Part shown: positions 1-64,000 of the stretch, in pieces
Layout: the number at the start of each line of letters is the position of its first letter
Position numbering within the stretch: position 1 is the first letter of the stretch
Origin: Raillietiella orientalis
Taxonomy: Eukaryota
NCBI GenBank assembly: GCA_036172245.1
Contig: JAYWIR010000013.1
Span: 4,340,001 to 4,404,000, forward strand
Direction: 5' to 3'
Length of the DNA: 64,000 bases
Translations under genes and position numbers: made by a program
The notes under the pieces: generated by a model
Seen by the model: only the letters and a program-made list of their open reading frames with translations
Told to the model about the DNA's origin: nothing
Databases searched by the model: none

Positions 1-36
1 ACTTTGAAGTCCTGGGGGGTATCACAAGTTTTGCTT

Positions 37-3000
37 TCAGGGTGGGTTTCCAGATGTTTGGTTCCGGGCGTCGTCTTCAATCCTCTTCAGGATGAATTGG
101 TACGTCCAGGCATGGAGTCATCCACACTTCCTGATGCCGATCTCCCTCTTGATGAGTCCTTGCAGGATCTCCATCGGGGGTGCGGCTCTTCTGGCTTTTC
201 TTATCTTCCAACACCACACAAGTATGACGGTGATGAAGAGAGCAATGGTGGTCCTCACCATGGGATTGTAACAGGGAACATTACCATCTCCCTGGAACAT
301 CCCAGCGAGGATTTCCATCACGGACTTGTTGTTGAGTCCCATGATCCTTTTCAGGATCAGACAGTCGTGTAGCAATGTGGGACACGTCAAGACATGAAGT
401 CTCGTATCGATGTCTCCACATGCCGTGCATTCTTCATCTTCCCGTCTCCGTGTGAGGTGCTTGAGCCTGGACCCGCTCTGGATTCCTCCATGATAAAGCA
501 TCAGGAGGTTGTCCTGGGTGTCCGGCGGAAGGTCACTCCTCCAGAGCGTCGTGACGATCGCCAACAGGTTGATCCTGTCACTCCCGTAGCGATCGGTGGC
601 TTCTTGGAGGGCACTGGTGTCTTGGTCCTGGTCCTTGATAATCTTCCGGAGGTTCATCTTGGTTACCTTAGACCACGCGAAGTCGTTGTGGTTTATCCAC
701 ACTTCGCTGGTCTTATGGGTGAACCTACCTAGCATCATCTCTATATACCGAAGTATACGAGTGTGATGTAGGTATCCCCTCGTCGCCATTCCTGGCTTTT
801 TTGCAGGGTAACTCTGGGCCGCTGGGAGATCCAGCTTCTCGTGTCCGGAGGGACCGGAAGCATCCACGGGATCACCAGGATGGATTCCTCCTGCCAGAGT
901 TCCCTGCTTCTCGGCACGATCTTGATGTTGTGCTTGCGCACCAGCCGTTGCCTTCTCCTCCAGGTTGGGTCTATGGTGTTCCACGGCTCGGCCTAGCAGC
1001 GCAGTCATCAGGCCATTTGAGTTGTTCAACAACAACGCATAGGCCCTATGCTCCGCGTACGGCCAGTCATCCCAGTGAGTAGCGATATCCAGGATGTGTC
1101 GCAAATTTTCATGATTTCCATGGAGTGTGCAAGCGACTTCATCCTGGAACCGCCCTCTTCTCTAGGACGACACAGGGGTTTCAAACGAACTCTAGGGCGA
1201 TAATGCCCCCACAATGTCTTTCTTTGCAGCTTTCCCACTTCTCTCGTGTTGTTTTTCTGCATTCTCGCGAAGGCCGCTCCGAAGAGCACCTTTGGAAGGA
1301 GTACTCCATTCCAGAGGTTGGCCTTTCGCTTCATGCGAAAGTCCAGTCGGGTGTACTTCGCTGCTTCCTTTATCGTTTTCCCCAAGATTTCCGTCCACAG
1401 TAGCTTCGACGCAGAGTTGTCGCTGATGTAGACTCCCAGGTACTTGGCAGTGTCCACCGTTCGGAATCCTCTCCCCGTGAGTACGGAGAGATCCAGGATT
1501 CCGACGGGCAAAAGATGGCTCTTCTGGGCGTTGATCTTCAGGCCCAGTCCTTCCATAAGCGTCATCACATCCAGGAACGCTTGCTGATCCCTCTCTCTCC
1601 TGATGAAAAAGAGGAGGTCGTCGGCGTAGGCGAGATGGGTGAGCTTCTGGTGGTCGATGTTAATCTCACGTAGTCGCCCGCTCTTCTCGATGAAAGAAGA
1701 CAGGGCCTCCATGTAGATAACGAACAGCATCGGACTTGGCGAGTCACCCTGCCGAACTCCTCGTTCCATCCGAATGGCTGCTGTTTCTACCCTGTTGATC
1801 TTGATCCGGAAACGTTGATTCCGGAGGATCATTTCTACGAAGTTGCTGAAGTATTCCGGAAGTCCCAGCTTTTCCAGAATCTTCAGCAGAATCCCGTGAT
1901 CGATGGTGTCGAAGGCTTTCTCCATGTCGGTAAAAGCTAGCACCAGGTTCTCGCCGTCCCTAAGGTATCGGCTAAGTCCCACGGTGGCCTGCGCGCACTT
2001 GACATTGTCCGACATTTGGCGTCCGGGTACCGCACATGTCTGGACAGAAGAAATCAGCCTTGACATAACCTTGCCTAAGCGGTTGGCCCAGATCCTTGCC
2101 AACCACTTGGCATTTGAGTTAAGGATTGAGATGGACCTACATCGGGCTATCCTGGATAGGTCGCCTCCTTTCGGCAACAGTCTCGTCCTGCTCTCGTAGA
2201 AGGACTCCGGCAGTCGTCCTTCTTGTCGGATGCAGAGGGTCAGCTGGTGAAATAAACGGAGGTAGGCGTGCAGGTACCGCTGATAGTGACTGATGGGAAC
2301 ACTGTCAGGGCCTGCCGCCACATCCTTGCGTAATTCCTGAAACGCATTCTTCACCTCTTCCTCGGAGAAATCCTACTCCAATCTCTTCCTTTGGAGGTCG
2401 TCAATCTTCTTTACAAGATGGCTGAGGAAGGTCTTCTGCATGGCCTGACACAGATGTTGTTGCCGGAAGTGTCCTGTGTAATGCCTTTCGAAGGCATCTA
2501 CGATGTCCTCCGACGTGTGTCGGCTGTGATCGCCGTACTGCATATGGAAGATATCTATGGCCAGATTCTTCCTCTCCAGCACGCCGATCTCCCCTTTTAC
2601 ACTATGGAAGACGTACCGACTCTCGTACTGATCGAAGTACTTTGAGAAGGAGCGATCTAGGATGTTCAGCTCCCGATACGCCTCCTGCCTCAGTCTCTTG
2701 TCGCCGAATTGCATATTTGCAAATAAATGGATCCTGTGCTTCAGGCTGTCTCAGTCGGCGACTCTTCGGATCGTAGTGGTCTTCAGAATCGCCTCCAGGA
2801 CCTCCTGATGACAGGGATGGGTCTCGAACCAGGCGGGCATGCTGATGAGCGCCGCCCTGGTGCCTTGCCTCCACCGAGGATTTTCCGTCCTTAGAGAAAA
2901 CCGCACCAACGGGTGATCCGACAACGCGGTGAGCGTGTCGCGAAAACCTTGAATGCGATTCCCTAGTTCGGTGCTGTGAAGGACGTGGTCGATCGGCTTG

Positions 3001-3554
3001 TGGCTAGCTGTTCTTCACAGCAGTCCGAACTCGTCGGACAACCGCCGATATGCCGTCCTTCCTCTGGCGTCCTGGGAATGGATGATTTCATCTAGGATGT
3101 TGAGATCGCCAGCGACGATCACGACGTCCTTGGGCGCGACCTTTTCTCAGAGTGCTGCATGCAGCGCCTGCGCACATCGATGTTTGTACCTGTGTGGCCA
3201 GTACACGCTCACCAGGAAGAGGTGAACGGTAGCGGACCACGCCAGTCGCACGCCGATGATGCGTCCCGGCGAGGGACAGAAAACTTCCAAAATGGTGGGG
3301 GCCAGGTGGTTCTTGATCAAGATCGCCACACCTTCCGTGTTCCGCCGTCCCTCGATGACGACCAGCTGCCCATCGAGGCATCGTTCCATTTGTTGGCTGA
3401 TCTGGAGATCCAGCCTGTGGGTCTCCTGCAGGCACACGACGTCTTGTTGTGCGATGGTCCGCACAATCCTTTTTCTTTTCTCCTGGTCGATCAATCCATT
3501 TACATTCCAGGAGGCGATGTTGATCCTCCTGGCGGTCGATTGGGAAGAGGCCAT
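37..3554 (-). pseudogene. F1 ORF2 (APE endonuclease - RT - Zn finger), disrupted by stops and frameshifts
   Basis: WNVNGL/LQETH (APE); DMEKAFD, GVRQGD, YADD, KYLG (RT); CTACGDIDTRLHVLTC. Confidence 0.92.
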
Positions 3555-3567
3555 AAAAGGGGAAGAC

Positions 3568-4440
3568 CTATTTCTTGGCCTTCCTGAGCTTCTTCTGTCT
3601 GAGAGAGCGTGCTCTTCCAGACAATGAAGAAGCAGCGGGCTTCTCGCTGCCGGCGTCACTCTCCGTCCCGGTGAAGTCGGTCTGATCGGCTTCCTCGGTG
3701 GAGTGCTCGGTTCGTGCGACGAGCTTACGAGGTAATACCTCCAACGCAACCTTGGCGCAGAAGTTTGCCTCCACGTCGAGAAGCTTATCCCCTAGCTTCT
3801 CGCGCTCGGCAGCCTCCACCACCTGATTGATGGTTTCTTGCGCATTGCAGATATTCTGCAGTTGTTGTTCCTGCTGAGCTCCGCTCTGCGCCTCCTCCAC
3901 TTCTTCAGCCAGTTTCTCCACCACTTCGGTGGTCTGCAGGGTCTCCTGCGACACCAGGGTGTGTTCTGGCACCTTCGCCACCTCGCCTTCCTCCGCAACC
4001 TCCATCCTCTCGCCTTCCTCTGCCGCTACTTTCGGGGTAAGTGGGGTTTCCTGCTCCTTGACGAGCATCTTCCTCTTCCCCTTCTTCGCTACCTCTACGT
4101 AACCATCCGCCGAAACCGGAGCGGCCTTCTTCGCCATCCTCTGTTTTATTACCTTCTGAGGTTTCACCACCTCGGTCAACGCCTTTTCCCGCACGGGGGA
4201 CTGGCCACGCATAGTCCGGTAGTTGGCAAACTCCGGACAGCACCACTTCGCATGCCCTGGCTGCTTGCAAAACGAGCACACCTCGGGCATATCGCAGCTG
4301 CGCACCTGGTGTCCCTGCTTCCCACAGCGGAAGCAGCGAGACGTGGGGCAGTCGCCCAAACGATGTCCAAAATTTTTGCAACCTGTGCAGAACACAGGTT
4401 GTTGTCTATAGTTGACGGAGACCTGCTGTGAGTCACCGTC
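3568..4440 (-). pseudogene. F1 ORF1 C-terminal part (gag-like, three CCHC zinc knuckles)
   Basis: CTGCKNFGHRLGDC, CFRCGKQGHQVRSC, CSFCKQPGHAKWCC followed by an E/K-rich tail. Confidence 0.9.
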
Positions 4441-4923
4441 CTTTGCCTTTTTTTCTGTTTGGTAGCTTTCTTAAACGTTTGAGCGTAGGTTAGTTGCAAT
4501 TTAAAAGCGGCTGAACCTTGCCTGTCAGGCGTTTAAAACATAAGAAACGCCGATCCTTTAAAGCGGGCAATAACCTCAGGGTTTCTTTTGCCTTCTTTTC
4601 TGTTTGGTAAACTTCTTAAATATGCTCTTAAATTTTATAGCGAAGGCAATTTAAGGGTCCGTGAAGGGTGTCATTCCAGCGCGTGACGCACTACTGTACG
4701 AACATTTGTTTTTCCAAGGTAATTCGGTGTCGTGCCAGTGCTTGACACTGGCACGACACCCTTCACGGGCTCCTAAACTGCTTTAGCTATACATATTAAG
4801 GAATTTACTAGGCGGAGGAAAAAGCAAAAGAAACCCTGTGTGGCGAGTTATTCACTTTTGTGTCGAATTATCGGCGCTTTTTTATTCCAAAACGCTTCGT
4901 CAAGTGAGACTCAGCTGCTTTTA
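4441..4923. repeat. AT-rich imperfect foldback palindrome (MITE-like) with an internal perfect hairpin
   Basis: Inverted arms CAGGGTTTCTTTTGC 4577-4591/4824-4838 and CCGTGAAGGGTGTC 4659-4672/4755-4768, with degenerate pairing out to about 4502/4923. Perfect 15-bp stem 4726-4740/4746-4760. Direct repeat at about 4441-4475 vs 4586-4620. Confidence 0.75.
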
Positions 4924-4939
4924 TGCGTGAGCTGCGCGC

Positions 4940-5330: not shown

Positions 5331-6429
5331 ACCCGGAAGAAGAGAGGTCGGAGGCTGCAGGCATTCTGCACCCTTACTGTGCAACGACAAGCGTCTCCGA
5401 CAAGTTCGAAAGTCTCCCCTGCCCCCCCACCTTTCCTTTCCTTCGAAACGGATCGTCTCGTTCGCTCGCGCTTCGAACTCGCGCAGCAAGAGCCGCGGGC
5501 GTCGATGAATCTTCCCTTTCCTCTCCTTTTCCTTTTCGTTCTTCTTCCGCTGGTTTCCGGCAGCGGGACGGATGATCACTTGCTCGTTTGCTGCCTTCAC
5601 TGGACGATGCAGCGACGTTCCCACCCGGTGACGTCATGGCGCGTATCTCGCGCAATAAGAGTCTCGGATCGAGAAACGACAAGGTCGAGGAAAGCGATCG
5701 GTTCGACGAAACGCCTGTCAGCAACACTCCAGCTCCGGAGCGGAAGCCAAGGGTCCCATGGGAAGTAGAAGGAAACGTGTGGAAAGAAGGGGATCGCTGG
5801 TAGTTGACGTCCGTACCACCGTGGAACGGGAACGGAGCGCAGGATGCGTCCCCGATGGCTTTCTCTCTCGGACGAGGACGGCACGTTGCAGTCCGCACGA
5901 AGGCGGTCGCCACCTCCGTATCTCCGCGCCCGCAACTCCAACACATGGCGCCGGCGCGCAGCCACGAAGAAGCAGATGCCACACTGCACCTCCTCACATG
6001 ACGAGAGTGCGCACCCGCGTGCGAAGAGAGTGGCAGCCGCACGTATGCTGGGAAAGTCCGCCGGATGCGGCTATCCGTGAACCCGCAGTTCTTCGAGCAC
6101 ACCGCAGTCCACCACAGCAGCAGCAGGAACGATCGAGCGTCCGGCAAGCGGAACACTTCAAGCACGCGATTTCCTTGAAAAAAAAAGTGTGCGCACACGA
6201 TACTCACGCGGGGAAGGCGGGAGAAGAGGGAGCTTCGGATCAGGGAACCATGTCCGCGATCTTTCACCCCACCCTCCTCACCTTTCCTTCGCTCGTTTCC
6301 CCACACCGGCTTTCCTTTCATCGGGCAAGGAACACTTTCCGACCGTTCCCAGAGGCGCTCGAAGCAGGAACGGAAGACGCGGCACCCGCAGATCCCGCAG
6401 GCACTTTTTGCTCCCGTTTTTCCGGACCG

Positions 6430-7125
6430 TGCCGTTAGGTTCGCCCAGTGGCAATGATCCGCTGCTCGAGCTTGTAATGGCGGCTGGGCAACTCAGGATC
6501 GACTACCCTGGAGGTGGAAACGGGACGTGGTTCTGATGTTGCATTGGGTTATCCATGGCAAGTGGCGCACCCACCTCGTTTCCAGGGAAGTTGCCTCCCC
6601 GAACTGTAGAAGGTGCGGAGCAGTGGAATCACTCCCGCACCTGCTCTTCGACTGTGGGGCCCTCCAAGGATTGTGACGGAGGCTGCCTTCAGCGCTCCTG
6701 AATCAATATGACCGCCATCGACACCATGTGCCGCTTCTTCACGCGCAGCGGCTTCTCGCTAGATGAGGTCATCGCAGCGATCCGTTGCATCCGCGGCATC
6801 GTCATGGCCGGTCACATGCTGAAGTCGCGAGCAGTCTTAACAGAGGCCACCAGGATTGCAGCCTCCAACATGAGGAGGCGGCCAGGTGGATTCAGCTCAG
6901 CAAAGAAGTCAGCAACAAGATCATCAGCATTCAACACCAGTTCTGAAACGATGGAACGGCCGAAGCCAAGACTTCTGTCTCCTTCCCCCTTCTGTCGTCT
7001 TCTTTTTTTGTACTTCTTATCTCCAGTTGTGGTTCTTTCCCTTCCGTTCCGGACTTTCAGTGAGCCCGACCTGCATGTCGGGGAGCCCTCCGCTTAAACT
7101 TCTTTTAACTTTCTCTGGGAACTTA
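6430..7125 (+). mobile_element. F2 LINE 3' fragment (ORF2 Zn-finger region and partial 3' UTR), degenerate
   Basis: RWKRDVVLMLHW...PNCRRCGAVESLPHLLFDC matches 16260-16705; the UTR motif TTCCGGACTTTC..CCGACCTGC.TGTCGGGGA is shared with about 16805-16840. Confidence 0.85.
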
Positions 7126-7128
7126 GTT

Positions 7129-7672
7129 CAGCAGGCTGGGCGACCCGACATGCAGGTCGGGCTCACTGAAAGTCCAGCAGGCTGGGCGACCCGGATTGCC
7201 AGGCCTGCCTCTCGGCCCCAGCTTTAAATTCCGCCAGTCTTCGGACGTCAGGTGTTCGGGTGTAACGACGGGCCTGCAGGTAAGCCCTCTCGTTCCGAAT
7301 ACCTTCACCAAATCCCCTGCGGAGATTTTATTCATCCCTCTACGCCAGGACGCCTCCGGACCAAGACGCCTCTCGGCGCTTGCTCCCGGATGGTGCCCCG
7401 GCAATAGATGAGGAGGAGAGAGTAAGCCTCGATGAGCCTTTCACGACCGGTGAAATTCTCGCCGGTATCAAAAGGCTCAGGAGGCGTAAGGCGCCAGGGG
7501 AGGACGGCTTGCCCGCGGAGTTCTTTCAGTGCTTCGCGGAAGAGCTGGCCCCCCTGGTGCTCGTGTTGACAAGGCTGATCCGAGACGAAGACGATGTTCC
7601 CGCCTCGTTTCGGTCAGCCAGAGTGAGGCTCCTCCCGAAAGGGGGGGACCTCAGGAAATTGAACAACTGCCG
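7129..7672. mobile_element. F3-like ORF2 fragment with an internal inversion (7175-7320 minus, 7318-7672 plus)
   Basis: The minus part encodes GFGEGIRNERAYLQARR...WQSGSPSLL; the plus part continues LRRFYSSLYARTPP...KAPGEDGLPAEF...LLPKGGDLRKLNN. Confidence 0.85.
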
Positions 7673-10600
7673 GTTGTTCTACTTCCGCAGCCGTGCCGAA
7701 GAGGAAGGCTGGCAAGAAGACCGGTTGCCCGAGACGGGTCGCACCTCCGCAGGTGGAGGAGGCCATGTCCTCGGGCACGGAGGAGGAGGCAATGTGCGTC
7801 GCGCCACGCGACCCCTCTCCGATCCGTGTCTCGGAAGCCAGCCCCATGGAAGTCGCTGTGGACGACGTGCTCCCGTGTGAGCAGCCGACCGTCGTCACGG
7901 CCACCAACGAGCCGCCTCCCGCAAGGGAGGAGGCCGCCTCCACCCCACAATAAACGCACCAATGCGTGGGCTCGCCTCCTGCCGCCTCTTGCCCATCACC
8001 TGTTGGAACGTCAACGGGTTGCGCGACGACGGTAAGAGGCGAGACGTAGCCGCCATACTGCGAGACTTCGACCTGGTGCTCCTGCAAGAGACGCACGTTC
8101 TCAAAGCAGAGGAAGTCCAGGAAATCGAAAGAATCGCGGGAGGGCGGCTACTGTGGAGGAACGGAAACGACCGCTCCTGCGGAGTGGCCTTTATGCTGAA
8201 GCCAGCCGTCGACAACGCACTGCGCAGCGTCAGGTTTGACGAGGACGGTCGAGTTGGGCAGCTTGCGTTCAAGTGGTCTGACTCGATCGATTTCGTGGTG
8301 ACGAACCTGTACGCTCCGGTGAGCAGCCACAGGGCCGAGGAACGCACTGCGTTCTTCGAATCCCTGCGGCGAGACTGGTTGGCTGAAGCAAGCGTACGGC
8401 GGGCGCACCTCATCGCGGGCGACTTCAATCTCCGCCTGCTTGCAGGTGCGCCCAGCAGTCGAGCACAACTGCTCAACGAGTTGTGCGCAGCAATGAATGC
8501 GCGCAACTTGTTGGCCGGTGATGCCGGGAGAGATCGGAACATCGATCACATGTTCCTCGACAACCACCTGTGCACGCGGGTGGGAACTCGAGGAACGCTC
8601 CCGGCAGAGCTGTCCGACCATCCACGGCTCGTGCTCGAGTTGCATCCGCGGAATAAGGGCCCTCCCTTGAAAACGTGGCGCCTGCCAGGGGACTGGTTGC
8701 GCCTCGCAGGAGCGGCGGAACATCTACGCGCCTTCCTGCGAGGATTCCATCTTGAGACGCTCGCGGACTGGGACGAAATGAAGTGCTCAGTCCGCGAGTT
8801 TTGCGACCAGTTTCCCCTGGAACGTCTTCCGCCGGGCTTCGGCGATGGGGTCAGGAACGAGCGGGCCTACCTTCAGGCCCGCCGGTATTCCAGGCGTCCC
8901 GACGTCCGTCGCTTGGCGGAATTCAAAGCTGAGGCGGAGAGGCAGGCCTGGCAGTCAGGCTCGGCCTGCTTGCTGGACCATCAGGGCCAAGAACGCTCCA
9001 GCCCAGCTCAGGTAAGCCGCATCGTGCGGGAGTTTTATTCCTCCTTGTACGCGCCACTAACACCGGAGCGCCATTTCGCGCAGCGCCTGCTGCAGGAGGG
9101 CCTCCCCGCGCTCAAGGAGGAGGATCGTTTCAGGTTGGCAGAACCGTTCACGATGGTGGAGGTCGTCTCCGCCATCAACAGGCTGAAGAACAGGAAGGCA
9201 CCAGGGGAGGACGGCCTGCCCGCGGAGTTTTACAAACACTTCGCGCCAGAGCTGGCCCCCCTGGTGCTCAGGTTAAGTACGCTGATCGGCGAACACGGCG
9301 AAGTTCCCGCCTCGTTCCGGTCAGCAAAAGTACGTCTCCTGCCGAAGTCAGGAGACCTACGCAACATTGGCAACTGGCGTCCCATCACAGTAGTGAATGC
9401 GGACGCAAAGTTGTATGCCAAGTTGTGGGCTGAGCGCTTGGGGCGGGTGGCCGCTTCCGTGATCAGTCCGGAGCAGACCTATGCTATTCCCGGACGAAGC
9501 ATGGAGTCAAACCTGCTCCTCGCCAGCACATGGTGGCAGTTGCGACAACGCGTTGCCCAGGAAGGTCAAGGGAGTCTTGCGCTCCCCTCTGACCAGGAAC
9601 ATCGAAGAGAGGGTGGGGGGATTCGGCGGGAGCCTTTGCAGTCGCGGTCGACTTGCACAAAGCATTCGACTGCGTCGACCAGGAACTCCTTTTGGAGCTC
9701 CTCGAACGCATGGGTTTCCCGGCCGTGCTCCAGTCCTACCTGCGCTGCTGCTGGCGCAACGCGTCAATAAATATCGGTTTTAGCGGCCGGCACGTGTACG
9801 GTGTGCCAGTGCGCCGCGGCATCCGGCAGGGTGACAGCCTGAGCCCCTTGCTCTTCAGCATCTACTTCGAGTTGGTGCTGAGGGCATACAGGGTAACTCT
9901 GGCAACCCTGCCGAGCTCGTGTGCCGGCACGCCTACCGTGTCGGCCTATGCAGACGATCTTCTGCTGCTGCTTCCCGGGTCCACCCCGGCGAGTGCACTC
10001 GAGGACTTCTTCGAGTTGCTGCGCCGCGGGACGGGCCTGGAGGTGAACAGGGCGAAGACGTCCATGGTCTTCGTCGGTTCGGCGTGGGCTGGACGGTCGG
10101 ACTGGATCCGCTTGGGGATCCCCACGGGCAGGTGCTTCAAGTACCTCGGTGTACCGTTGGGGGACTTCTGCGCAGCAGAAGCCTGGTCCGAACGTCTCCA
10201 AAAGGCAGCGTTGGCGATCGGTCCGTTCCAAGAAGGCAAGTTCTACTTGCAGGAACGGGCCGCGGTGTGGAACGCGTTTGCGGCTCCCCTCCTTCGCCCC
10301 CTACTTTTTGTTTGCCCCGCCCCTTATTTTATTCGAAAACGAGCAGCGGGCCTCCTGAGGACAGTCCTTTGGGGCAAAGGGAGGTCCCGTGTGAGGCTCA
10401 AAGACTTGTGCGCTCCACGTAAGGACGGTGGACTTGGCGTACTTACGCTGGAGCGCATGGAACAACAACTTAGATTCAGGACTCTCGCCCTTGCGGCGGA
10501 ATTGTGGGACACGCCTTGGTGCGTTCCAGCACGCCTCCTGGCCCAACGAGCCTGCGGAATCGGCGGACTTTTGTCGTTTCTGTCTGCGCGCGTCTGCAGA

Positions 10601-11768
10601 AGACCATACTGTGGCTCTATGCTGCGACGCATCTTTGGTGCGGTTCGGGAGAACGCCTGGATCTCCTGCCTCCCAGGGAACTACTCCGCCTGGTTGCACG
10701 AGTCAGTCTCCACCTGGGAAAAGATCCACGTTCCGGCGGGCACAAGGAACACTTGTATGAAAAGGCACGCCCGCTGGACGCTGCAGGAGATCGTGCAGTC
10801 CCACGACAAGCTTCTGTGGGCCTTGATAACCCCCCTCGCCCCAGTGCTGCCCTTCCTTGTGAATGCCAGGGACAGTAGCGAGCAGGGGAAATGGACCGTG
10901 TCCTGCACTATAGGCGGCAGGGCACAATCGATAAAGGCGTGGACATCTCGGCAGCTAGCTGACGCTGCGACGCCGAGTGTCCCGCCCAACGGAATTGGAC
11001 GCTGGGGCGAGCTACTCGGACTGTCTCCGGAGGAGATGAAGTGGCCCCCAGCGTCCTGGAACAGTGCATCCCTCCCCCTGAAATGGCAGGATGTGGCGTT
11101 GCTTGTGGTACTCTGGGGATTACCATTCAAAGCACGCCTGCACCACACCACCCGGGGGGCTGTGGATCCCAATTGTGACCGGTGTGGGGAAAAAGAAACA
11201 TTCCCCCACCTTCTCCTTGAGTGCAGCGCCCTCCGCCCTTTGTGGGATCGTCTCGCGGCGATCCTGGACTTGCGCGGATGCGGCCCAAAGGACGTTTACA
11301 GGCGCCTCTTCTGTAGTGACGCCTTGTCCCCGCCCGCTAGTGTAGCAGTCCTCTGCTGCATCAGAGGAATAGTGGCGGCTCGGAACGCCACCAGAAGAAG
11401 GCGTCAGCCAACCGGCAACGCCTTACACTGGACTCGCCTTTTCGCGCGCAGTGTCTGCAAGTGGCGCCACTTGGGCGCTGAAAGGACTCAGCTTGTGCGG
11501 ATCCTGAATAGGATCTAGAGGACCTTTCCACGCGCACCGTGATCCCTTCCCGGCCCTCCCACCCCTACAACATTTGTTACCCCCCACATTTGAACTTTTT
11601 GTTTCTTTTTGTTTTTCTTTATTTCCCATCCCCGCGCACCGGAAGGACCTCTCCGGCATGGAGCCGGTAACCAGCAAGCTGTTTTGCAGTGGTGAACCTT
11701 CGAGTTCGCCACGCGACATTTCATGTATTTTTATTTCAAGGAAATAAATGCCCCGGCACATCCGGGTG
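7673..11768 (+). mobile_element. LINE (F4-related), 5'-truncated in ORF1, with complete ORF2 and 3' terminus
   Basis: ORF1 tail to 7953, ORF2 from 7962, T-rich UTR, terminal AATAAA-hairpin 11743-11768. Confidence 0.93.
7962..11518 (+). pseudogene. ORF2 APE-RT-Zn finger with one frameshift near 9600-9650
   Basis: WNVNGL, LQETH, NLYAP, GDFN, SDH; DLHKAFD, GIRQGDSLSP, YADD, KYLG; CDRCGEKETFPHLLLEC. Confidence 0.92.
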
Positions 11769-11772
11769 TGAA

Positions 11773-13136
11773 TTGCGACGGCGCGCGTCACCATGGACGA
11801 CCGGAGGCTCATGCCTTCGCAGATCCTCCTCGGTGACGTCGTCGTCTATCTCCGGTTTGCCGGGCAAACCCCCGCTTGCGGCAACTGCGGGAAGGAGGGC
11901 CACCGTCCGCGGAAGTGCCCAACACGCAGTTGCCGATACTGTAAGCTGCTCGGCCACTCGATTAACGAGTGCGCCGAGCTAAAACGAAAGAGGAGGGCGA
12001 GAAACCTCCCCGCAACATCGCCGTCCGCGCCGACTCCATCCGCCCCGTCGTCGGGGAAGAAATCAGGCGCGAACGAGGATTCTCAGCGGAGAAGTGAAAA
12101 GTCCGCTTGCGCGGGCGATTCTCGGAGCAATGCTACACAAAAACCCGCGCGAAAGGACAAGAAGCTTCTCCAGGCTGCTTTAGTGAAGCCCCGAGCGACC
12201 CAGCCCGCCGATAACATCGGGCAGGCTGCAAAACCACCGCCGCTTCCGTCCGCTCTCGCTCCGGAGCGAAATAGCGGTGGCACGCCCGGGAAGACCACCG
12301 GAGCGTCGAAAAAGGGGTCGCGCGCCCCTTTGCCCGCGACAGGCAAGCCGGCCACGGCGGGCCGAACGCCAGCAAAGGCTGAAAAGCCTCGCGCGACACC
12401 CGAGAATCCCGCCACTGTGCCCGCACCTCCCGGTAAGGAGGTGCAGAAGGCAGACGTGGCGAAGGAGACACTGGCCTCCATCGCCGTATCCGAGGCCTTG
12501 GAAAGGATGCGAAGGACCCTGGAAGCCCTCGCGCCCAACCGGGGCAAACAGGAAGGCGGCGAGGATGGCTGGACCTTCGTCGGGGGAAAGAAGGAGCGCA
12601 AACCGCGCGATCCTTCCCACTTCCCGATCAAAAAGGTAGGCGGGGTGAAGAGGCAACCCCGCGCGCCCAGAAAGGCGCAAGGAAAAGCCTCTGCTGCCGC
12701 CGCGCGCGCCGCCGCAAACACCCGCGGCGAGAGGGGAGCTGCCGAAGCCGTGACCCCGAAAGGGGGATCGGCGACGAAGGCACCCTCTAAGAGTGCTGGA
12801 CCAGCTCCGGGCTGCCAGCAAACAAAGAGGCAGGCGAAACGCCCGCCGCCGCGCGCGCGCAATTCGGACTCCGAGGTGGAGTCCGAGGGCAGCGCTAAGG
12901 CTCGCCAAGCCCCGGTCAAGGCCAGGGCTGCGCGCAAGCCAAAACTTTCCAGGCAAGAGCCTGATGCCGGGAACGGTTCCCGATGCTCCTCGGAGCCCGA
13001 GGCAAAGGTCCTCGACTCCACCGAGCCGGCCGCGAGCGGCGCGGCGGGGACAGGAAGCGCTTGCGCTACCTCATCCGCCGTGCTCCCGGCTGGTGCCTCG
13101 CCGGACGGGGCGAGGAACGCACCTCCATGTCCGTAG
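11773..13136 (+). pseudogene. F2 ORF1, N-terminally truncated (two CCHC knuckles, K/P/A-rich tail)
   Basis: CGNCGKEGHRPRKC, CRYCKLLGHSINEC. Confidence 0.88.
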
Positions 13137-13141
13137 CAGCA

Positions 13142-16100: not shown

Positions 16101-16705
16101 CAGGAACAACGCGACCTATTGGCGGCTGGAAGACTTGCGAGCTGGCGGACGCCGCCACACCTCGCCACGTTCCGAAGGGACTCCTTCGGTGGAGCGAACA
16201 CTTGAGTGTGCCCCTTGAAGAACTTGTGGTTCCTCCCTTGTGTCTGAACACTTCTGTGTTCCCCCTTTCGTGGAAGCAGGATGTGATGATGCTGGTGCAT
16301 TGGGGTTTTCACTCCAGCCAGCGCACGAACCTTGTTTCCGGGGGAGTCGTCTCCCCAAACTGTAAGCGGTGCGGGGAAGTGGAAACGCTCCCGCACCTGC
16401 TCCTGGACTGCGGTGCCCTTCTAGGACTCTGGCGGAGGCTGGCCTCAGCTCTCCTGCACCAGGGGGACACCGCGAGGGAGTTGATGCGCCGCTTCTTCAC
16501 GCCAGGCGGCCTGTCATTGGGTACTGTCGTTGCAACCGTGTGTTGCACCCGCGCCATCGACAAGGCCCACCGAGAGTTGGAGAAGCTGGCCATCCTTCGT
16601 CAGCCCACCGGATTAGCCAGCGCAAACATGTCGTCGGCTGCCCAGTGTACCCATCTGCCACAGGGCGTAAGGAGAGAGATCGCCGGCATCCATCGCCGGT
16701 TTTGA
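13142..16705 (+). pseudogene. F2 ORF2 with a single in-frame TAG at 15014-15016
   Basis: APE motifs, DLRKAFD, RRGIR*GDSLSP (CAG->TAG), YADD, CKRCGEVETLPHLLLDC. Confidence 0.93.
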
Positions 16706-16933
16706 AAGGAAGGAACGGATTTACCAAAGACCCCTGTCCCCTGCCCTCCATATTTTTCTTTTATTTTTTTATATAGTAGTGTGTTTGTGGTCCCTTCCCT
16801 CCCCTTCCGGACTTTCGGCACACCGACCTGCGTGTCGGGGATCCCACCCCCTTCGTCTCTTGTTTTCCCCTTTGTCCGGGAACCCTGTTCCCGGATAGTT
16901 TATAATAAACGCCCCAACGCACCCGGGTGACAA

Positions 16934-17393
16934 CCAGCCGCCCCCCTGCGATCCTCTCGATCTCCTGGGAGTTCTCCCCGGTGATCACGTGGATCTCCTG
17001 CAGGAGTGCCAGGTCGAAGTCACGCAGGGTGGAGGTCGTGCTACGTCTGTTGCCGTCGTCACGCATCCCGTTCACGTTACAGCAGTCCACGCGTAATTGA
17101 CGGCGACAGGCGAGCTCAGGTGTTATTACTGGGTAAGTAGCAATGGGGATCCCGCCACCTGGTCGGGCGGGACGGATAGAGGAATGGAATCACCGCGCAC
17201 CAGTTCTCCCACCTCCATGGGGGCCGATTCCTCAGCGGATCGCAACGGTTGAAGGGAGCATGCTTAACGCACCTGCTTCCCCTCTTCCATGGGGGCCGAT
17301 TCCTCGACTGCGTTGGACGACAGGGGGTAGCGGTTCTCAGCTGTCTGCTCCCCCTCTTTCATGACCATCTTCTCCGCAGGCTCCACCGGTGGT
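16934..17393 (-). mobile_element. F3 fragment: ORF1 end and APE N-terminus
   Basis: PMEEG repeats, then NVNGMRDDGNRR...LALLQEIH...IAGGRL; bounded on both sides by 3' termini of other elements. Confidence 0.85.
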
Positions 17394-17396
17394 CTA

Positions 17397-20300: not shown

Positions 20301-20711
20301 AGGGCAGGCGGTCCAGGGGGAACTGCTCGCAGAACTTCCGGAGCGAGGCCTTGAGAAGGTCCCAATCCGTGAGACTCTGGAGCGTGACGTTTCTCAGGAA
20401 TTCGCGAAGGTGTTCCTTCGCACCTGAGAGTCGCATCCAGTCTTCCGGCAGACGCCATTCCCTGGATGGCGGTCCCTTGTCGCGAGGCCGCATCTCGAAA
20501 ATTAACCGGGGATGGTCCGACAACGTTGACGCAACCCTCCCTCGTTTGCCGACCCGTGAACACAGGTCAGCGTCGAGGAAGACGTGGTCGATGCTGCGGA
20601 CCATTCCTCTCTCACACGCAAACAAGTTGCGCGCACGCATGGCGGCGCACAACTCGTTCATCGCGTTCACTTGTGTTTCCGGCTCACCTGTTAGCAGGCG
20701 GAGATTGAAAT
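17397..20711 (-). mobile_element. F3 LINE 3' part (ORF2 from GDFN to end, 3' UTR, terminal hairpin)
   Basis: FNLRLL...SDH...DLHKAFD...YADD...CVRCRERESLSHLIVDC; terminal motif 17397-17423; continues the fragment at 26618-28934 across a nested insertion. Confidence 0.93.
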
Positions 20712-26539: not shown

Positions 26540-26600
26540 CGTCGTCAAAATGTACGACGCCAAGATGAAGCGGATGAAAGCACGGAGACGAGAGCGAAGA

Positions 26601-44100: not shown

Positions 44101-44110
44101 GAAGTGAGAA
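38166..44110 (+). mobile_element. Full-length degenerate F2 LINE (ORF1 about 38283-40187; ORF2 40187 to about 43759)
   Basis: 5' motif CAGACGTGTTT 38175-38185; TGATG junction 40185-40189; RT motif YAND; several stops; 3' motif 44081-44106. Confidence 0.93.
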
Positions 44111-51437: not shown

Positions 51438-52500
51438 GTTCGACGAGGAAGATCGTGTAAGCCAACTAGTCCTCAAGTTGTCCGAATCGATCGACCTTGT
51501 CGTAAAGAACATCTACGCGCCGAGCGGCGGTCGGCATTACGCCCAGCGAATCGCATTTCTGGGTAGCCTGCGCAGCCGCTGACTCTTCGACTCCGTCCCC
51601 AACGTGGCGCACCTCCTTGCAGGAGACTTCAACGTCCACCTGCTAACAGTGGAGAGATGCCGCTTGAGGAAGAAGAAACTGGTGAGAAATGTATGCGCGT
51701 GCGTGCGCGTGCAAAACTTGCTTGCTGGTGAGCCCGGAATGGAGAGATGCCCGGACCATGCGTTTCTTGATGAACACCAGCTCTCACGAGTAGGTCGGAG
51801 AAAGCGCCTGCTGTCCGAGATTTTAGATCATCCGAGACTGGAGTTAGAGATCCTCCCTCCTGGCAAAGGGTCTCCGATGAATGTATGGAGGTTGCCGGCC
51901 GACTGGATTAGCAATTCATAGGCGGCGGAGCATTTTCGCCAGCATTTCCGGGGCTTCTCCATCCGTGAACTCGAGAACTGGGACGATCTGAGAAGATCGA
52001 TCCGCGAGTTCTGCTGCCGGTTTCCCTTGCACCTGCTTCCCTGCGGCTTCGCAGAGGGTGTCGCGAACAGCAGATCCTTTCTGAAGGCACGTACCTTCTA
52101 CCGATGCCCGGACATCCGGCGCCTGGCGGAGGACAAGTCCAGGGCCGAGTGCCAGGTTTGGCAGTCTGGAGCGGCCTGTCTGCTCGATGACGCTGGCCAG
52201 GAATGCTCGGCTGCAGCCGACTTGCACCGCGTAATTATGCGCTACTACTCCTCGATGTACGCGGAGGAGCCCACGGAACGCAGTCTCTCCGAGCAGCTTC
52301 TTCCGACGGGTAACCCTGCTATCGACGAGGAGGAACGCGCCAGATTAGATTGGCCTTTCACGGCGAAAGAAGTATCTTCCGCCATAGCGGGCCTGAAAAG
52401 GCGTAAGGCGCCAGAGGAGGATGGCTTGCTCGCGGAGTTCTTTCAGTGCTTCGCGGCGGAGCTCGTCCTCCTGGTGCTCAGCCTTTGCGCGCTGATGCGG
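51438..52500 (+). mobile_element. F2 internal ORF2 fragment (APE C-half to RT N-terminus)
   Basis: HLLAGDFNV...GFAEGVANSR...KAPEEDGLLAEFFQCF. Confidence 0.88.
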
Positions 52501-55500
52501 TTTGAACCCGGTTGCGCCGGGACGTTTATTTGTAAAAACAAACCACAATCTTGAAGGGAAATTCATCCCTTCAAGATAGAAGAAACGCCCATACATAAAG
52601 TTCAGCCCGGGAGTATCACCGGCAAGCAGGCCGCCTTCGAAAAGAAAGAAACGGAGGGAGAGGGGTACAAAATAAACAAAACATGAGTGAACAAACAAAG
52701 AAACAGTGGAGGGTGGGGTGACGGATCTTTGCCATTAAACGTTCCTCATCTTCTTAGAAGCGCTGTCTTCCGATGGCGACTTCCCTGGAGACTTTTCTGG
52801 GCAGATGAGGCCACCTGACAGCTACCTTCATAAGGTTCGGGGCTATCCTGGCGGCGACCATTCGCTGCGAGCTTCCTTGTAACTTACGGAGGGCCGTTAC
52901 GATGGCGCGTATGCAACAGATTGTTGCGATCACAGCGCCTTTATCCAATCCGTCTTCACTGATGGAGCGTAGCAGCAGGTCGATGACAGTGTCCTGAGGA
53001 CGACGAAGTGCCGAAGCAAGTCTCCGCCATAACTCCCGCAAGTCACTCCACTCAAGGAGCAGGTGCGTAAGCGATTCTATCGCCGCCGCACCTAAAGCAG
53101 TTCGGGGAGACGACTTCTCCTGTAACCAAGTTTCTGCGCTTATTGCACTGAATCCCCAGTGCAGAAAAAGAAGAACATCCTGTTTCCATCGAAGCTGGAA
53201 CACGGAGCTGTCCACACACAAGAAAGGGACCACAAGATCTTCGGGGAGTAATCCAAGAACCTCACTCCAACGAAGAAGTCCCTTTGCCAGGTAACGAGGA
53301 GTGGCAGCGTCTACCAACACGCTCGTTCTGCAGCCGCTCAGCAGTCTTCCCACTCCGGCAATGCTGCAAAAAAACTCCCACCTTGCCGGTTGGCTACTGT
53401 CGTTGTTTGCCCTGAGAGCAGACAGCGCTGCGGCGATGTGTGAGACGACTATCCGGGAACAAAGCAACCAGTCCTGTAGGATCACTCCTAGCGGTTTGCG
53501 TGAAAGGCCCTGTAAGGGTCGCAGTTTCTCTGGGCGCACATCCAAAGTGGACGTCAAGTGCTTCAGAGCTTCCTGCTGCCAAGCATTCCAATTGGAGGGG
53601 CGGCAGGAAATCCAGGAATGGGCTAGCAGCAACGAGAACAAATGCCTCAGTGGATAGCCAAATCGAGTTCTCCGGCGAAGGTTGCGCGGCAGCAACGAAA
53701 GCAATCCTGCACTGCCGACACATCGCTGGAGAATATGGCGAGCCGGAGCACACCAGTGACTAGACCACAATTTCCCATATAGGGATAGAAGCCGGAACTG
53801 CACTTGCAGTCCAATCTCCTGGATGGTCAGGATGCCGAGGCCTGCGTCCTGGCATGACGCCACCAAATCTTTGAGTCGAACCCTGGATCGCGCAGCGCCC
53901 CACAAGACCTTACGTAGGAGACGCTGCGCCCGGAGTTTAACCACATAGGGAGGCGGGCAAACAAAAAATAAGGGGCAAAGAAGGGGGGCAAGGAAAGTGT
54001 TTCATATGCACGCCCTTTCCGACAAGACGAACTTGCCTTCCAGGAACGGGCCTAGAGCCATCTCTGCCTTTTGAAGACAGGCCGACCACGATTCAGACTA
54101 GCAGAAGTCGCTTAACGGAACGCCAAGGTACTTGAAGTACCTGACCGTGAGGATCCCCAAGCAGATAGAGTCGGCCTGCCCTTTTCACGACGCACCCACC
54201 GGCACCACGGAGAACCTCTCCCTGTTAACGCTAATGCCCTCTCCACGACGGATCAGCTCGAAGAAGTCTTCGAACGAGTCCGTCGGAGTGGACATGGGTA
54301 ACAGAAGCAGATGGTCGTTGGCGTATGCTGCCGCGGACGAAGTGCACGGAGAGGCGCTGGGAAGGACGACCAGCGTCAGCCTGTATGCTTTCAGCACCAA
54401 CTCAAAGTAGATGCTTAAGAGCAACGGGCTTAAACTGTCGCCCTGTCTTATGCCTCTGCGCAAGGCCACGCCGCACGCGTGGGAGCCACTGAAATGCAAG
54501 TTGATAAGCGCGTGGCGCCAGCAGGAGCGCAAGTACAAGAGAAGTTGGTTCGGAAGGCTAAGACGCTTAAGGAGCTCCAAGAAAATTCCTGGTCGACGCA
54601 GTCGAATGCTTTACGCAAATCCACTGCTACTGCCAAAGCTCATGGCGTTTCTCCCGTCCGCCCGCACTGGGGCTCGCAGTCGGCAGAAGGTGTAGCCGCT
54701 GTGCGGCTGACCGCCGCAACGTGCTCTTGCAGCTGCCACCAGGTGCGCTACAAAAGAAGGTTTGCATGCATGAATCTAACCGGTACAGCGTAAGACTGCT
54801 GCGGGCTTACCACGGACTCCCGACTTTCCTTGGTCGTATGACACAGCTTGAAAAACAACTTGACGTCCGTATTCACTAACGTGATCGGACGTCAGTTGTT
54901 GAGTTGGAACAGATATCCTCCTTTCAGAAGGAGACGCACTCTCGCTGAGCGGAAGGAAGAAGTGACATCGCCCGTCAACCTCATCAGCGTCGAAAGTCTG
55001 AGCACCATTGGGGCGAGTTACGCAGCGAAGCTCTGATAGAGCTCCGCGGGTAGCCCGTCCTCACCTGGCGTCTTCCGTTTCTTGCGTCCTGCGTTGGCGG
55101 AAGAAAGTTCCTCCAACGAGAAGGGCTCGTGAAGTCGGGAGCGTTCCTCCTTGCCGATGCCTTGTGCACCCCGTAGCAGAAGCAGTTCCGAGAGGATTCT
55201 CTCCGTCAGATATTTGGCGTAGAGTAAAGAGAAGTGACGCCTTAGTGTTCGCAGTACTTCGGAAGGAGCCGAGCATTCCCGGCCCTGGTCGTCGTGCAGA
55301 ATAGCCGCTCCAGACTGCCAGACTTGGCGCTCGGCCCTGGTCTTGTACACTGCGAGGTGCCGGACTTCAGCACGTCTAGACAAGTTGCAGTCATGCATAA
55401 ATTCTCTGCTATTGGCCACGCCTTCTTCAAAACCGCGCGTTTGGAGGTGCATAGGAAACCGGTCTCAAAACTCGCGAGCCGATCTTTGGAGATGGTCACA

Positions 55501-57058
55501 GTCTGCGAGCTGCCGGATGGCGAAGCCGCGAAGGAACTGGCAAAGATGCTCCGCTGCATACGGACGACTGAGCCAATCCGCCGGCAGCCTCCAAACATTG
55601 TTCGGAGGTCCCTTGCCGGGCAGGAGTAGCTCGAACTCCGTCTTATCATGGTCCTATAAAGTGGACGACAACCTGCCTCTTCTTCCCACTCGTGAGAGTA
55701 GGTGTTAATGAAGGTAGACGTGATCCACGCACCTTTGCAGTCCAGGCTCGCTGGCTTCTAAGTTACGCGCGTGCATTGACGCGCATGCCTCTTCCACCCG
55801 CGACCGTTCCTCCAGGGACGTCGTCTCGTTGAAAAGCAGGTGGACGTTGAAGTCCCCTGCGACGAGATGTACCACTCTGTCTCCGAAGTTCCTGAGGCAT
55901 TGCCTCTCGAGCACGTCAAGGAACTTGATTCTTTCGGCGCGCCGATGAAAGCCGCTCGGCGCGTAGACGTTCGTCAGGACAAGGTCGATTGAATCTGACC
56001 ACTTGAGTACAAGCTGGCCTAATCGCTCTTCCTGGTCGAATGGAACGCTGCGCACTGCTCCCTCCATCCTACTCTTAACGAGAAACCCGACTCCTCACGA
56101 TTGTGCATAACCTTCTCGCCAGTACAGGGTGCCACCCGCGCGCTGTTTAATTTAGGCAAGCTCCGCGTCGGAGATGTAATGCATCTCCTGAAGGATCGGC
56201 AAGTCGAAATTTCGCAGGGTGTCTTACACGCCGCGCCTCTTTCCGTCCCTGCGAAGCCCGTTGACGTTTCTAAAGGCTACGCTGAACCGACGAACAGAGG
56301 CGACTTCCTGCATTAGGGCTGGCAATGTGAGCACAGGTGTGTCGCCTGGTCCAGCGAGTGGTCACGAGACAGAACGGCAGAACTTGGAGAGTGGACATCT
56401 CCATTCGAAGTTGCCCTGCTTGTTGCCGGTAGCTCAGAGGTGAGGTCCATCCCCTCCTCTTTGCTCCCCGGCAGCAGATCCTCTTCGGCAACTACGCTCT
56501 TGCGGGTATTCGGGAGGCGATTGCGAGGTTTCGGGCGGGTTTCGCGCTGTGAGCTCATTGTGTCGGACTCTGGATCAGAATCCGACAGTCGAGCGCTTTC
56601 CAGGCGCCGCTTCAGTTTCCCTGAATTTGAGAAATCATTTGCTGCCTGTTTTTTAGCGCTTTCTGCTACTGCGACTAAGACTTTCGTCCTTTTAGCTGCA
56701 GCAGCCGTTTCTTGCTCCATCCGCGAGAAGACGACTGCACAGGAAGAAAGGATCGCAATCTTTTTCTGGGATGGTTTCGCGGGTCTCTTCCGCCCACTCA
56801 CCTTCACGCAGAGCTGTGAGTACCTTGACGGTTTCTTTTTAATAACCTCTCTCACCAGTATCCAGCCGTCTTCCTTCGCGTCGCAGTTACGTTTGCCCTC
56901 CTGAGATGGCACTGCGTCCGCGGAAGTAAGAGGCGCTGCTTTGGCTGCCTCTTGAAGTGCTGCCTCCACGCAGGCGTAAGCGACTCCCTTAGCGATCGCG
57001 AGAGCCTTGCGCGCGGGCGGTATCGCCGCCGCTGAACGAAAGGAAGGCGTATCATTGC
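52501..57058 (-). mobile_element. Degenerate F2 LINE (ORF1 tail, ORF2 56313-52754, 3' terminus)
   Basis: TAATG junction 56311-56315; DLRKAFD, YAND; terminal motif 52505-52530. Confidence 0.9.
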
Positions 57059-57150
57059 TAGTTTAAAACTATACCCAATACCCCGCCAAGGCAGTGTTTA
57101 AAACCACTGCCAAGCCAATTTCTGAGTGCCCTGAGAGGGCAAGTGTTTGA

Positions 57151-58956: not shown

Positions 58957-58969
58957 GTCTTCCCCTTTT

Positions 58970-61900: not shown

Positions 61901-62487
61901 GTGACACCAGTGCCTTCCAGGAAGCCACCGAACGCTACGGGGGTGAACGGTTCAACCTGTTAGCGATCGGCACGACGCTGTGGAGGAGTGACCTTCCGTC
62001 GGGCACCCAGGATGACCTCCTGATGTTTTATCACGGAGGAATCCAGAGTGGGTCCCGATTGCAGCACTTCACAGGAAGACGGGAAGACCGAGACTGCGCA
62101 GCATGTGGAGACGACGACACGAGACTTCACGTCTTGACGTGTCCCACACTGCTGCATGACTGGCTGATCCTGAAAAGGATCATAATACTTACCAACAAGT
62201 CCGTTATGGAGATCCTCGCCGGGATGTTTCATGGGGGTGGTAATGTTCCCTGTTACAATCCCATGGTGAGGACGACCATAGCCCCCTTCATCACCGCCAT
62301 ACTTGTGCGGTGGTGGAAAATGAGGAAAGCCAGAAGAGCCGCACCACCGATGGAGATCCTACAAGGGCTCTTGAAGAGGGAAATCGGCATCAGGAACTGC
62401 GGGAATATCCACGCCTGGACGTACCGATTCATCCTGAAGAGGATCCAGGACGACGCCCGGGACCATCCAGCTGGAATTCCCCCCTGA
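58970..62487 (+). pseudogene. F1 ORF2 APE-RT-Zn finger with several stops and frameshifts
   Basis: FWNVNG, AGDLN, SDH, DMEKAFD, YADD, KYLG, CAACGDDDTRLHVLTC. Confidence 0.92.
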
Positions 62488-62621
62488 AAAGCAGAACTCT
62501 AGTGCAACCCAAGGATACTTAAGTGCAAAATGTTTGTATTGAGTGAATGAGGGTGCGAATGTAAATATTGTATTTTTATAGAAAAATAAACTTATCCCAC
62601 CCCTTGCGGGACTTGGGGAAA

Positions 62622-64000
62622 CTTGGCGATCGTGAGAGGCGCTGCCTCTTGCAGATTGGAGAATTCGCTCGTGGCCTTTGCGACCGCTGGGGCGCTGCTG
62701 TAAAGGTTGTACTCTCCTTAGCGGTTTCTTCCATGGCCGCAGTAAGCGCTGCGTCCGCGAGCGAGGTTTGCGAGTTTTTCGGCTGTTTCTTCGCGGTACT
62801 CGGCGTTTGGAGCACCTTGGCCGCTGTAGGTTTAGCCGGCACGGAGTTCTTTGCCCGCGGGCGCGATTTTCTTGTATCGGGCGAGCGACCACATTCCTGG
62901 CCACTAGCCGAGGCCTTGATAGTAGGCTTTGCGGTCGCGATGCCGACAGTGGGAGGCTTCTTCCCCTTCGGCGCACTCTTTCTTGCATTGGAAAATTCGC
63001 TGCGAGGTCTCGGTGAGATCTCGCATTGCTCGCGAGCTTCTCTCGTCTCGGTAGCCTAAGGCTACGCCGGGACGCGTTTTTTCATGTTTTGCTCCCCAAT
63101 TTTGTGGAGGGGAGAAGGAGTTTTCTGCTCATGCGCGCTCACGGTTTTTGCAACGCTCTCCGAAGTTTCGAGGTTTTTTTTCTCTCTATTCGCGGCGTTT
63201 ATTTCGCAATGCGTTACGCGCTTCGATCTTGCGCTTTTCGTTTTTCAAAAGGAGCTCCGAACGCGTCTCTTTTGTGTGCCCGGGCTCGTGGCAGTAACGG
63301 CAAGCGGCCGAGGGACACTTCGTAAGGCAGTGTCCCTCCTGCCCGCATTCCGCGCACGCAAGCGTTTGCCCCGCAAACCACAGGCAGGGACGGTCATTCC
63401 ATCCACCCGCAGTCGCGCGGGCATTGCGCAGCGATCCGCCATCATCACGCGCACCTGCACGAGCCCGCTGTGATGGTCTTCGAAACCCTCACCAGGGTTT
63501 GGCAACCTCCAAAGCGCGTGAACGGAGGCGAATTTTTCAAGGACCTCCACGACCTGGCGGTCCGAAAAACCCTTGCTCACTTCACTCAGCCGGACAACGA
63601 ACGACTGATCTGATGTGGTGGGGAGTATTTCCTGCCCACGAATGAGCAGCGGCGTGTGCAGCAAACGCGGCGTAATGAGAGCGTTTTTAGTGGACACCTC
63701 CCAGTAGCCGCACCCACTCTTGGGAATGAGGGACTCCAGCTGGACTCTCTGAACTCCAATCCGTTGGAGTTCCTGACCTAACTCGCGCCCAACCCGCTCA
63801 GGCGTAAGGACACTTACCTTATACCTGAGTGCAGGCGTGTAGGCATTTGCTACATACGCCTGCAGCTCAAGGCTGTCGGGCGAAGTTCTTATTGTAGCCG
63901 CGAGGGCAGCTACCTGGGCAAACTTCCTCGACGGCGGCGAGGACAGTGGCTCGTTGCTAGCAGCCGAAACCACCATCTCAGGAGCAGGTGACGTTCCCTT
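62622..64000 (-). mobile_element. F2 LINE 5' part (disrupted ORF1); runs off the window
   Basis: YTPALRYKV...FASVHALWRLPNP, homologous to 26539-25900 and 38283-38945. Confidence 0.88.

Follow-up and report, generated by a model that had tools for sequence, protein, structure and literature searches.

The 64,000-nucleotide stretch analysed here (Raillietiella orientalis, contig JAYWIR010000013.1, positions 4,340,001 to 4,404,000 of the forward strand; hereafter the window) is a nest of L1/Tx1-like long interspersed nuclear elements (LINEs) from many families, several of which have landed inside one another. We consider it probable that LINEs from a single host-specific branch of the L1 superfamily have long accumulated in the window as in a sink, and that the block became LINE-only by tolerance and retention of insertions or by attraction to its chromatin, and not by recognition of a target sequence. 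A LINE nest is an ordinary kind of object, here well described; the window documents an L1-superfamily branch with almost no public protein relatives and a hairpin 3' end devoid of poly(A).

The ORF1 and ORF2 open reading frames (ORFs) of the window were placed back onto it by tblastn. By this self-comparison, non-LTR (long terminal repeat) retrotransposon sequence makes up about 97% of the 64 kb, in some 20 LINE pieces, 11 on the plus strand and 9 on the minus strand. The non-LINE total is about 1.8 kb and lies in three stretches (4441-4934, 5332-6511 and the 137-nt copy of U4 small nuclear RNA, snRNA). Two kinds of protein are encoded: ORF2, whose N-terminal AP-endonuclease precedes a reverse transcriptase (RT) and a zf-RVT region, and upstream of it ORF1, a protein with CCHC knuckles. 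Exo_endo_phos comes before RVT_1 within ORF2 in el8, el9 and el12, and the same order is spread over stop-interrupted frames in C1 and el16. ORF2 coverage reaches at least 1000 residues in eight pieces, and none of the copies in the window retains ORF1 and ORF2 both intact. Pfam matches were obtained for 24 of the 250 stop-to-stop frames of at least 110 aa, exclusively to RVT_1, Exo_endo_phos, Exo_endo_phos_2, zf-RVT and zf-CCHC; among these 250 frames, no integrase, transposase or host domain was detected. The first-pass annotation had described nearly the whole window as L1/Tx1-like, with no LTR element, transposase or clear host gene, and this description of a multi-family LINE nest is correct. 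Rfam identified a single U4 snRNA, and Tandem Repeats Finder (TRF) detected no satellite or telomere repeat in the window, only two short repeats, both within ORF1. The GC content ranges from 53 to 65% along the window and from 56 to 64% in the elements. Over the whole window TpA is depleted (observed/expected ratio 0.53) and CpG is not (0.98); CpG decay, considered as a mark of methylated heterochromatin, thus gave no signal in either direction. The pieces are as follows, with clades I and II and family C as defined below (UTR, untranslated region).

1..4440, minus: C1, family C; 5'-truncated in ORF1; ORF2 with AP-endonuclease and RT; 3' UTR cut by the window start; 4 in-frame stops
4441..4934, unstranded: palindromic piece, unclassified
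4935 (approximate)..5331, plus: el3, main-clade 3' fragment with the extreme ORF2 C-terminus, 3' UTR and hairpin tail; the sole complete tail next to non-LINE DNA
5332..6511, unstranded: non-LINE DNA of unclassified nature
6512..7165, plus: el5, ORF2 C-terminus and 3' UTR; no canonical tail, the end being broken by a local inverted duplication
7166..7316, minus: el6, ORF2 residues 314-366; head to head with el7g
7312..7672, plus: el7g, ORF2 residues 380-497; 87% nucleotide identity to el11
7673..11772, plus: el8, clade II; ORF1 tail, full ORF2 (no stop, one frame change), hairpin tail
11773..16933, plus: el9, clade I; 5'-truncated in ORF1; full ORF2 (one stop); tail adjoins el10 at ORF2 residue 86
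16934..17392, minus: el10, ORF1 tail and ORF2 residues 12-86; probably one element with el14, split by el11/13
17393..20711, minus: el11, clade II; ORF2 residue 179 to 3' tail; 3' half of el11/13; 93% nucleotide identity to el15
20711..26617, minus: el12, full-length clade I element with 5' motif, ORF1, 962-aa ORF2 frame, C-terminus in another frame and hairpin tail
26618..28925, minus: el13, 5' end, ORF1 (599 aa) and ORF2 residues 12-181; 5' half of el11/13
28926..30325, minus: el14, complete 5' end and most of ORF1; head adjoins the truncated head of el15
30326..32433, plus: el15, clade II; ORF2 residue 587 to hairpin tail; tail adjoins the truncated start of el16
32434..36611, plus: el16, ORF1 tail, full 1169-aa ORF2 (one in-frame stop) and hairpin tail adjoining el17 at residue 612
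36612..38170, minus: el17, ORF2 residues 68-612; 91% nucleotide identity to el16
38171..44111, plus: el18, full-length clade I; 4 stops; degenerate hairpin; tail adjoins el19 near residue 81
44112..45965, minus: el19, complete 5' end, ORF1 and ORF2 residues 20-81; about 75% identical to el16
45966..48726, plus: el20, ORF2 residue 275 to tail; internal deletion; 8 stops; tail adjoins el21 near residue 316
48727..51437, minus: el21, complete 5' end, ORF1 and ORF2 residues 12-316
51438..52500, plus: el22, clade I; ORF2 residues 112-467; cut by the el23 tail
52501..57002, minus: el23, 3' part; ORF1 tail, full ORF2 (13 stops, the most decayed element) and hairpin tail
57003..57139, plus: U4 snRNA copy, full length, fused to the C2 5' end; Rfam RF00015
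57140..62621, plus: C2, family C; ORF1 (601 aa), ORF2 (4 stops), tail AATAAA...GGGGAAA
62622..64000, minus: el23, 5' part; ORF1 region, running off the window

Three nested insertions have both halves of their target in the window, and two of them are flanked by target-site duplications. Element el12 lies inside el11/13 at ORF2 residue 180, between two copies of the 9-bp duplication ATTTCAATC (20703-20711 and 26618-26626), and one contig of run X1 carries el11/13 in uninterrupted form, that is as an empty site, with a loose end at 26618. The joined U4-C2 unit lies in the ORF1 tail of el23, within a 15-bp duplication (56988-57002 and 62622-62636) whose two copies agree at 13 of 15 bases. The third insertion, el11/13 in ORF1 of el10/14, has no clear duplication. 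Disabling changes per 100 aa of ORF2 range from 0-0.09 in el8, el9, el12, el16 and el17 to 1.1-1.2 in el20 and el23. In the two clear cases the insert is less decayed than its host (0.09 for el12 versus 0.41 for el11; 0.47 for C2 versus 1.2 for el23), which fits the nesting order.

The nest is made of many lineages. Taking less than 80% nucleotide identity as separating families, self-blastn left only four pairs at or above this level (C1/C2, 81%; el11/el15, 93%; el7g/el11, 87%; el16/el17, 91%), so that the larger pieces represent at least 13 families; the "at least four" related families proposed from first inspection were a safe lower bound. Amino-acid identity on a common ORF2 coordinate resolves three deep clades: clade I (el9, el12, el18, el22, el23 and el5), clade II (el8, el16/17, el11/13/15/7g, el20, el10 and el21) and family C (C1 and C2), the last sharing 20-35% amino-acid identity with the rest. 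Related copies vary chiefly at synonymous positions, a sign of constraint: dN/dS was 0.17-0.70 (seven comparisons over three related pairs), and el7g and el11 differ by 20 synonymous and 21 non-synonymous codons out of 119. The families therefore diverged while active, as separate lineages. The 44 in-frame stops include all three stop codons and align with many different residues; this rules out codon reassignment and identifies them as decay.

To place the elements, we compared their proteins with several collections. Among solved structures (phmmer against PDB), the closest chain was human LINE-1 ORF2p (E 2.8e-44), R2 proteins following at E 2.5e-14 or weaker, and within this set the RT is therefore nearer to L1 than to other kinds of LINE. 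Among 5.8 billion proteins, a word-indexed search returned one close relative, P0001 (57% identity), all other matches being at most 31% identical. HMMER over 1.84 billion cluster representatives gave 34,393 matches at E up to 0.001, of which only P0001 and P0257 (69% over 106 aa) were close, both metagenomic; a turtle protein, P0173, looked close by its score but was discarded, being a series of repeated RT pieces 31-39% identical. These protein searches returned neither Zepp nor ZeppL, a protein-pattern scan found no metagenome relatives, and two matches to the tail motif in metagenomes were due to chance, being devoid of LINE homology. A search for a dinoflagellate spliced-leader relic gave 0 matches. 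A quick LG+G4 tree, made with a short search and without an outgroup, a Zepp reference or a curated Tx1 reference, compared 11 pieces of the window with 29 database proteins, 40 rows in all; the database proteins were chosen because they scored highly or bore a name. In this tree the main clade and family C share a branch (SH-aLRT 100), with P0001 inside the main clade, and that branch lies apart from plant L1s, vertebrate L1s and a single fish group whose Tx1 label is the automatic name given by its source. On this quick tree, the elements appear to form a private branch of the L1 superfamily. They resemble human and other mammalian LINE-1 in domain order, 5' truncation, snRNA chimeras and target-site duplications (9-15 bp here). 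In contrast to LINE-1, they have neither poly(A) nor a T-rich nick site to pair with it, their ORF1 carries CCHC knuckles, many lineages coexist, and their named relatives are at most 31% identical.

The window contains 11 complete 3' ends, all of which finish in 2-4 A; no A-run exceeds 4, and none of the 11 ends carries a poly(A) or A-rich tail, a feature that the first-pass annotation had passed over. The main-clade tail reads AATAAA-YG-CCCCGG-(4-6 nt)-CCGGG-TG-N-A(2-4), and the family C end consists of AATAAA, 24 nt including a small GC hairpin, and AAA. The hairpin motif (CCCGG/CCGGG) occurs 7 times, versus 0.96 expected in shuffles, and a 5-bp stem was predicted in 7 of the 11 folded tails. 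Both the main clade and family C end about 25-27 nt past AATAAA, a spacing that would fit cleavage at the element's own polyadenylation signal and copying from the very start of the A tail. At all 11 tails the flanking DNA begins with two pyrimidines. Full-length 5' ends begin with a common motif, AGTGCRGACGTGTTT, found exactly at two and with two mismatches at two more, and it is visible by eye at two further 5' ends; a common 5' truncation point of el8 and el16 was considered, and alignment gave it no backing. The position of AATAAA, 25-27 nt before the end in both LINE clades, also suggests that the host poly(A) signal is probably AAUAAA. Chlorophyte algae differ in this respect, their signal being UGUAA.

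The U4 copy matches Rfam RF00015 with 65.7 bits over model positions 1-138 of 138. Its 3' end is joined to what appears to be the 5' end of C2, and one 15-bp duplication encloses both (56988-62636); the unit is therefore a chimeric retrocopy made by a template jump, and not a U4 gene. The other family C copy, C1, is 5'-truncated, so any association of family C with U4 is read from C2. Chimeric retrocopies of U6 snRNA and L1 in mammals, and chimeric retrogenes in Magnaporthe, have been reported (PMC4476161, PMC2104539). They share with U4-C2 a full-length small RNA joined at its 3' side to a LINE within one target-site duplication. U4-C2 differs from the U6/L1 chimeras in that the small RNA is U4 and the LINE part is apparently full-length and not a 3' stub. 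It represents a clean snRNA-LINE chimera outside mammals and fungi.

A further question is whether the elements seek out one another, as the first-pass annotation had proposed in calling the window a self- or chromatin-targeted system. It had correctly noted that all intact 3' ends abut LINEs except one at 5326: 10 of the 11 adjoin a LINE, and the last A of the exception lies at 5331, next to the non-LINE DNA at 5332-6511. In a block that is 97% LINE, however, 10.7 of 11 tails are expected on LINE sequence by chance, and tail neighbours are therefore no evidence of targeting. The ten LINE-internal insertion points fall in ORF1 (four) and at ORF2 residues ~81, 86, 180, 316, 467 and 612, on both strands, the closest two (those of el9 and el18) being 27 nt apart on the target coordinate; with positions so scattered and both orientations used, no sequence-specific self-targeting is seen, and the window lends the proposed system no support. 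Tx1-clade LINEs are similar in having a zf-RVT region in ORF2 and a 3' end set by their own sequence in place of poly(A), but the present elements, with ten scattered LINE-internal junctions, have no single target site. The argument that mixed orientations speak against a telomeric array of the HeT-A/TART type holds, with 11 pieces on one strand and 9 on the other and no telomere repeat found by TRF. An X1 contig (39525) contains another family C tail, which abuts in antisense the linker of ORF1 in an el18-like element; C2 is placed likewise in el23, and by eye the flanks of the two tails (62622-62636 in the window) are alike at about 14 of 19 positions with two gaps. These two flanks may hint at a target preferred by family C.

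In the reading that we favour, LINEs would have entered a gene-free block repeatedly, by target-primed reverse transcription at endonuclease nicks, and many arrivals would have landed within earlier elements. The RNA would end about 25-27 nt past its own AATAAA, with the CCCGG/CCGGG hairpin and 2-4 A, and copying would begin there, probably in a "stringent" mode that relies on the enzyme recognising the 3' end of its own element. Nick-site preference would be weak, extending to the two leading pyrimidines of the flank and to no specific site within LINEs. The LINE-only state would arise either because insertions are tolerated and kept, in gene-free and probably low-recombination chromatin, or because this chromatin attracts them. 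The anatomy, the three nested insertions (two with target-site duplications), the age differences and the tail structure are as observed above; the use of the tail and the reason why LINEs fill the block are inferred.

Several observations weigh against this reading or require more than simple nesting. At four junctions a plus-strand tail abuts the interior of a minus-strand element (el9/el10 at residue 86, el16/el17 at 612, el18/el19 at ~81 and el20/el21 at ~316), and the other half of the minus-strand target is not where nesting predicts it. At four head-to-head joints (~30325, ~38170, ~45965 and ~51437), a minus-strand element with a complete or near-complete 5' end meets a plus-strand LINE from a different family whose own head is truncated, and all the minus-strand pieces lack their 3' parts. 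Two further joints, at 11772 and 32433, set a tail against the truncated head of the next plus-strand element; like the head-to-head joints, they need extra events. The hairpin stems are invariant, so that covariation provides no backing for an RNA structure, and the two-pyrimidine rule was derived from the same 11 junctions that it describes. Moreover, the lack of any other transposon class in 64 kb could reflect real targeting, or a genome poor in other classes. Insertion-linked loss of target, events using two templates and later rearrangement are possible sources of the odd joints. We discarded the idea that el17 and el19 are halves of one element split by el18: el17 is 91% and el19 about 75% identical to el16, and the would-be duplication is mismatched at 3 of 10 bases. 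Reuse of a regenerated nick site was likewise discarded for the tail-to-head joints, which have no duplication between the tail and the next element.

The odd joints would be accommodated by a model of tail-directed self-insertion, in which each incoming copy enters through a nick at the 3' tail junction of an element already in place, and the second end of the DNA primes synthesis on the RNA of another LINE (twin priming in trans). One prediction of this model is an inverted arm, 3'-truncated and 5'-complete, beside a sense arm with a tail. This geometry occurs four times in succession (el10/14 with el15, el17 with el18, el19 with el20, el21 with el22), both tail-to-head junctions (11772 and 32433) are present, the U4-C2 chimera indicates that the enzyme does join two templates, and the model spares the loss of four target halves. 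We nevertheless hold it quite unlikely. It places the youngest units to the right, where decay is highest (0.56-1.2 lesions per 100 aa in el20-el23, versus at most 0.09 in el8, el9 and el16); in at least two units the arms come from different clades (about 54% amino-acid identity for el17/el18, 38% for el21/el22); neither duplication nor microhomology could be demonstrated at the odd joints; and the three nested insertions sit in element interiors, not in tails. A trivial origin of the joints, the assembly having wrongly connected similar LINE repeats, would agree with the state of run X1, the one run that contains the sequence, whose contigs (1.48 Gb in 13.4 million records) are short and, for 113 of the 146 that aligned, only 95-99% alike, leaving most joints without independent support; X2 gave no aligned contigs and X3 31-mers only. 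Such an artefact is highly improbable all the same, given that most pairs of copies are below 80% nucleotide identity and hence too diverged to collapse, that two insertions have matching target-site duplications, that the halves of split elements run on in register, and that one empty-site contig agrees with the el12 insertion.

The remaining alternative starts from the same LINE-only, nested block, 64 kb devoid of genes and of other transposons, and supposes that the families enter only centromeric chromatin, the window being part of a centromere. The passages on these arrays in three papers describe Zepp clusters as nested and as occurring once per chromosome in Coccomyxa, and ZeppL-1 as marking Chlamydomonas centromeres (PMC8226300, PMC3446292, PMC11005252), in agreement with what the first-pass annotation had stated of this literature. 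L1-built centromeres are thus documented, in those passages, for green algae (PMC8226300, PMC11005252), and the 56-64% GC of the elements recalls the 61% reported for Zepp (PMC3446292). As portrayed there, Zepp (Coccomyxa and Chlorella) and ZeppL-1_cRei (Chlamydomonas) resemble the window in forming self-nested, GC-rich, LINE-only arrays of L1-superfamily elements over tens of kb. The window nevertheless holds three clades with at least 13 families, where Zepp/ZeppL arrays have one or two families, and several of its copies are full-length or nearly so, whereas those arrays consist mostly of 3' ends; moreover, the window has no bearing on its own chromosome position. The tails differ as well, Zepp having poly(A) and the window elements a hairpin with 2-4 A. 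In addition, the size of X1 and its near-matches suggest a large genome or a mixed sample holding further copies, in which case a LINE nest would need no special explanation. We therefore regard a centromere entered in this way as possible but doubtful. Should there be one such block per chromosome, the range of LINE-built centromeres would grow by a new host and by a form made of many families, and the window would offer a system for asking how LINEs reach centromeric chromatin. A broader proposal seems unlikely to us: that the block is a centromere, or a chromatin domain sought by LINEs, outside green algae, fed by more than 12 private L1 lineages, with hairpin-tail copying free of poly(A), frequent joining of two templates (as in the U4 chimera and the head-to-head arms) and growth by landing in recent arrivals. 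The sink of tolerated or chromatin-attracted LINEs described above is the reading that we retain.

The 1.2-kb stretch at 5332-6511 is the only sizeable non-LINE DNA in the window; Pfam gave no match for it, neither blastn nor tblastx aligned it to any other part of the window, and it may be a remnant of the original host sequence. The 0.5-kb unclassified piece at 4441-4934, at the truncated head of C1, has no Pfam match; it includes an imperfect palindrome (4577-4838) and a 34-nt direct repeat (4442-4475 versus 4587-4620, 88% identical by blastn). Within the N-terminal region of ORF1 in el14, two copies of a 42-bp unit stand in tandem with 87% matches (30126-30208). The end of el5, which has no tail, is a short inverted self-duplicate (7050-7082 versus 7145-7176); the 19-nt direct repeat on either side of it (7130-7148 and 7177-7195) is part of the fragment that follows, and the joint at 7050-7195 looks as though it was made by template switching.

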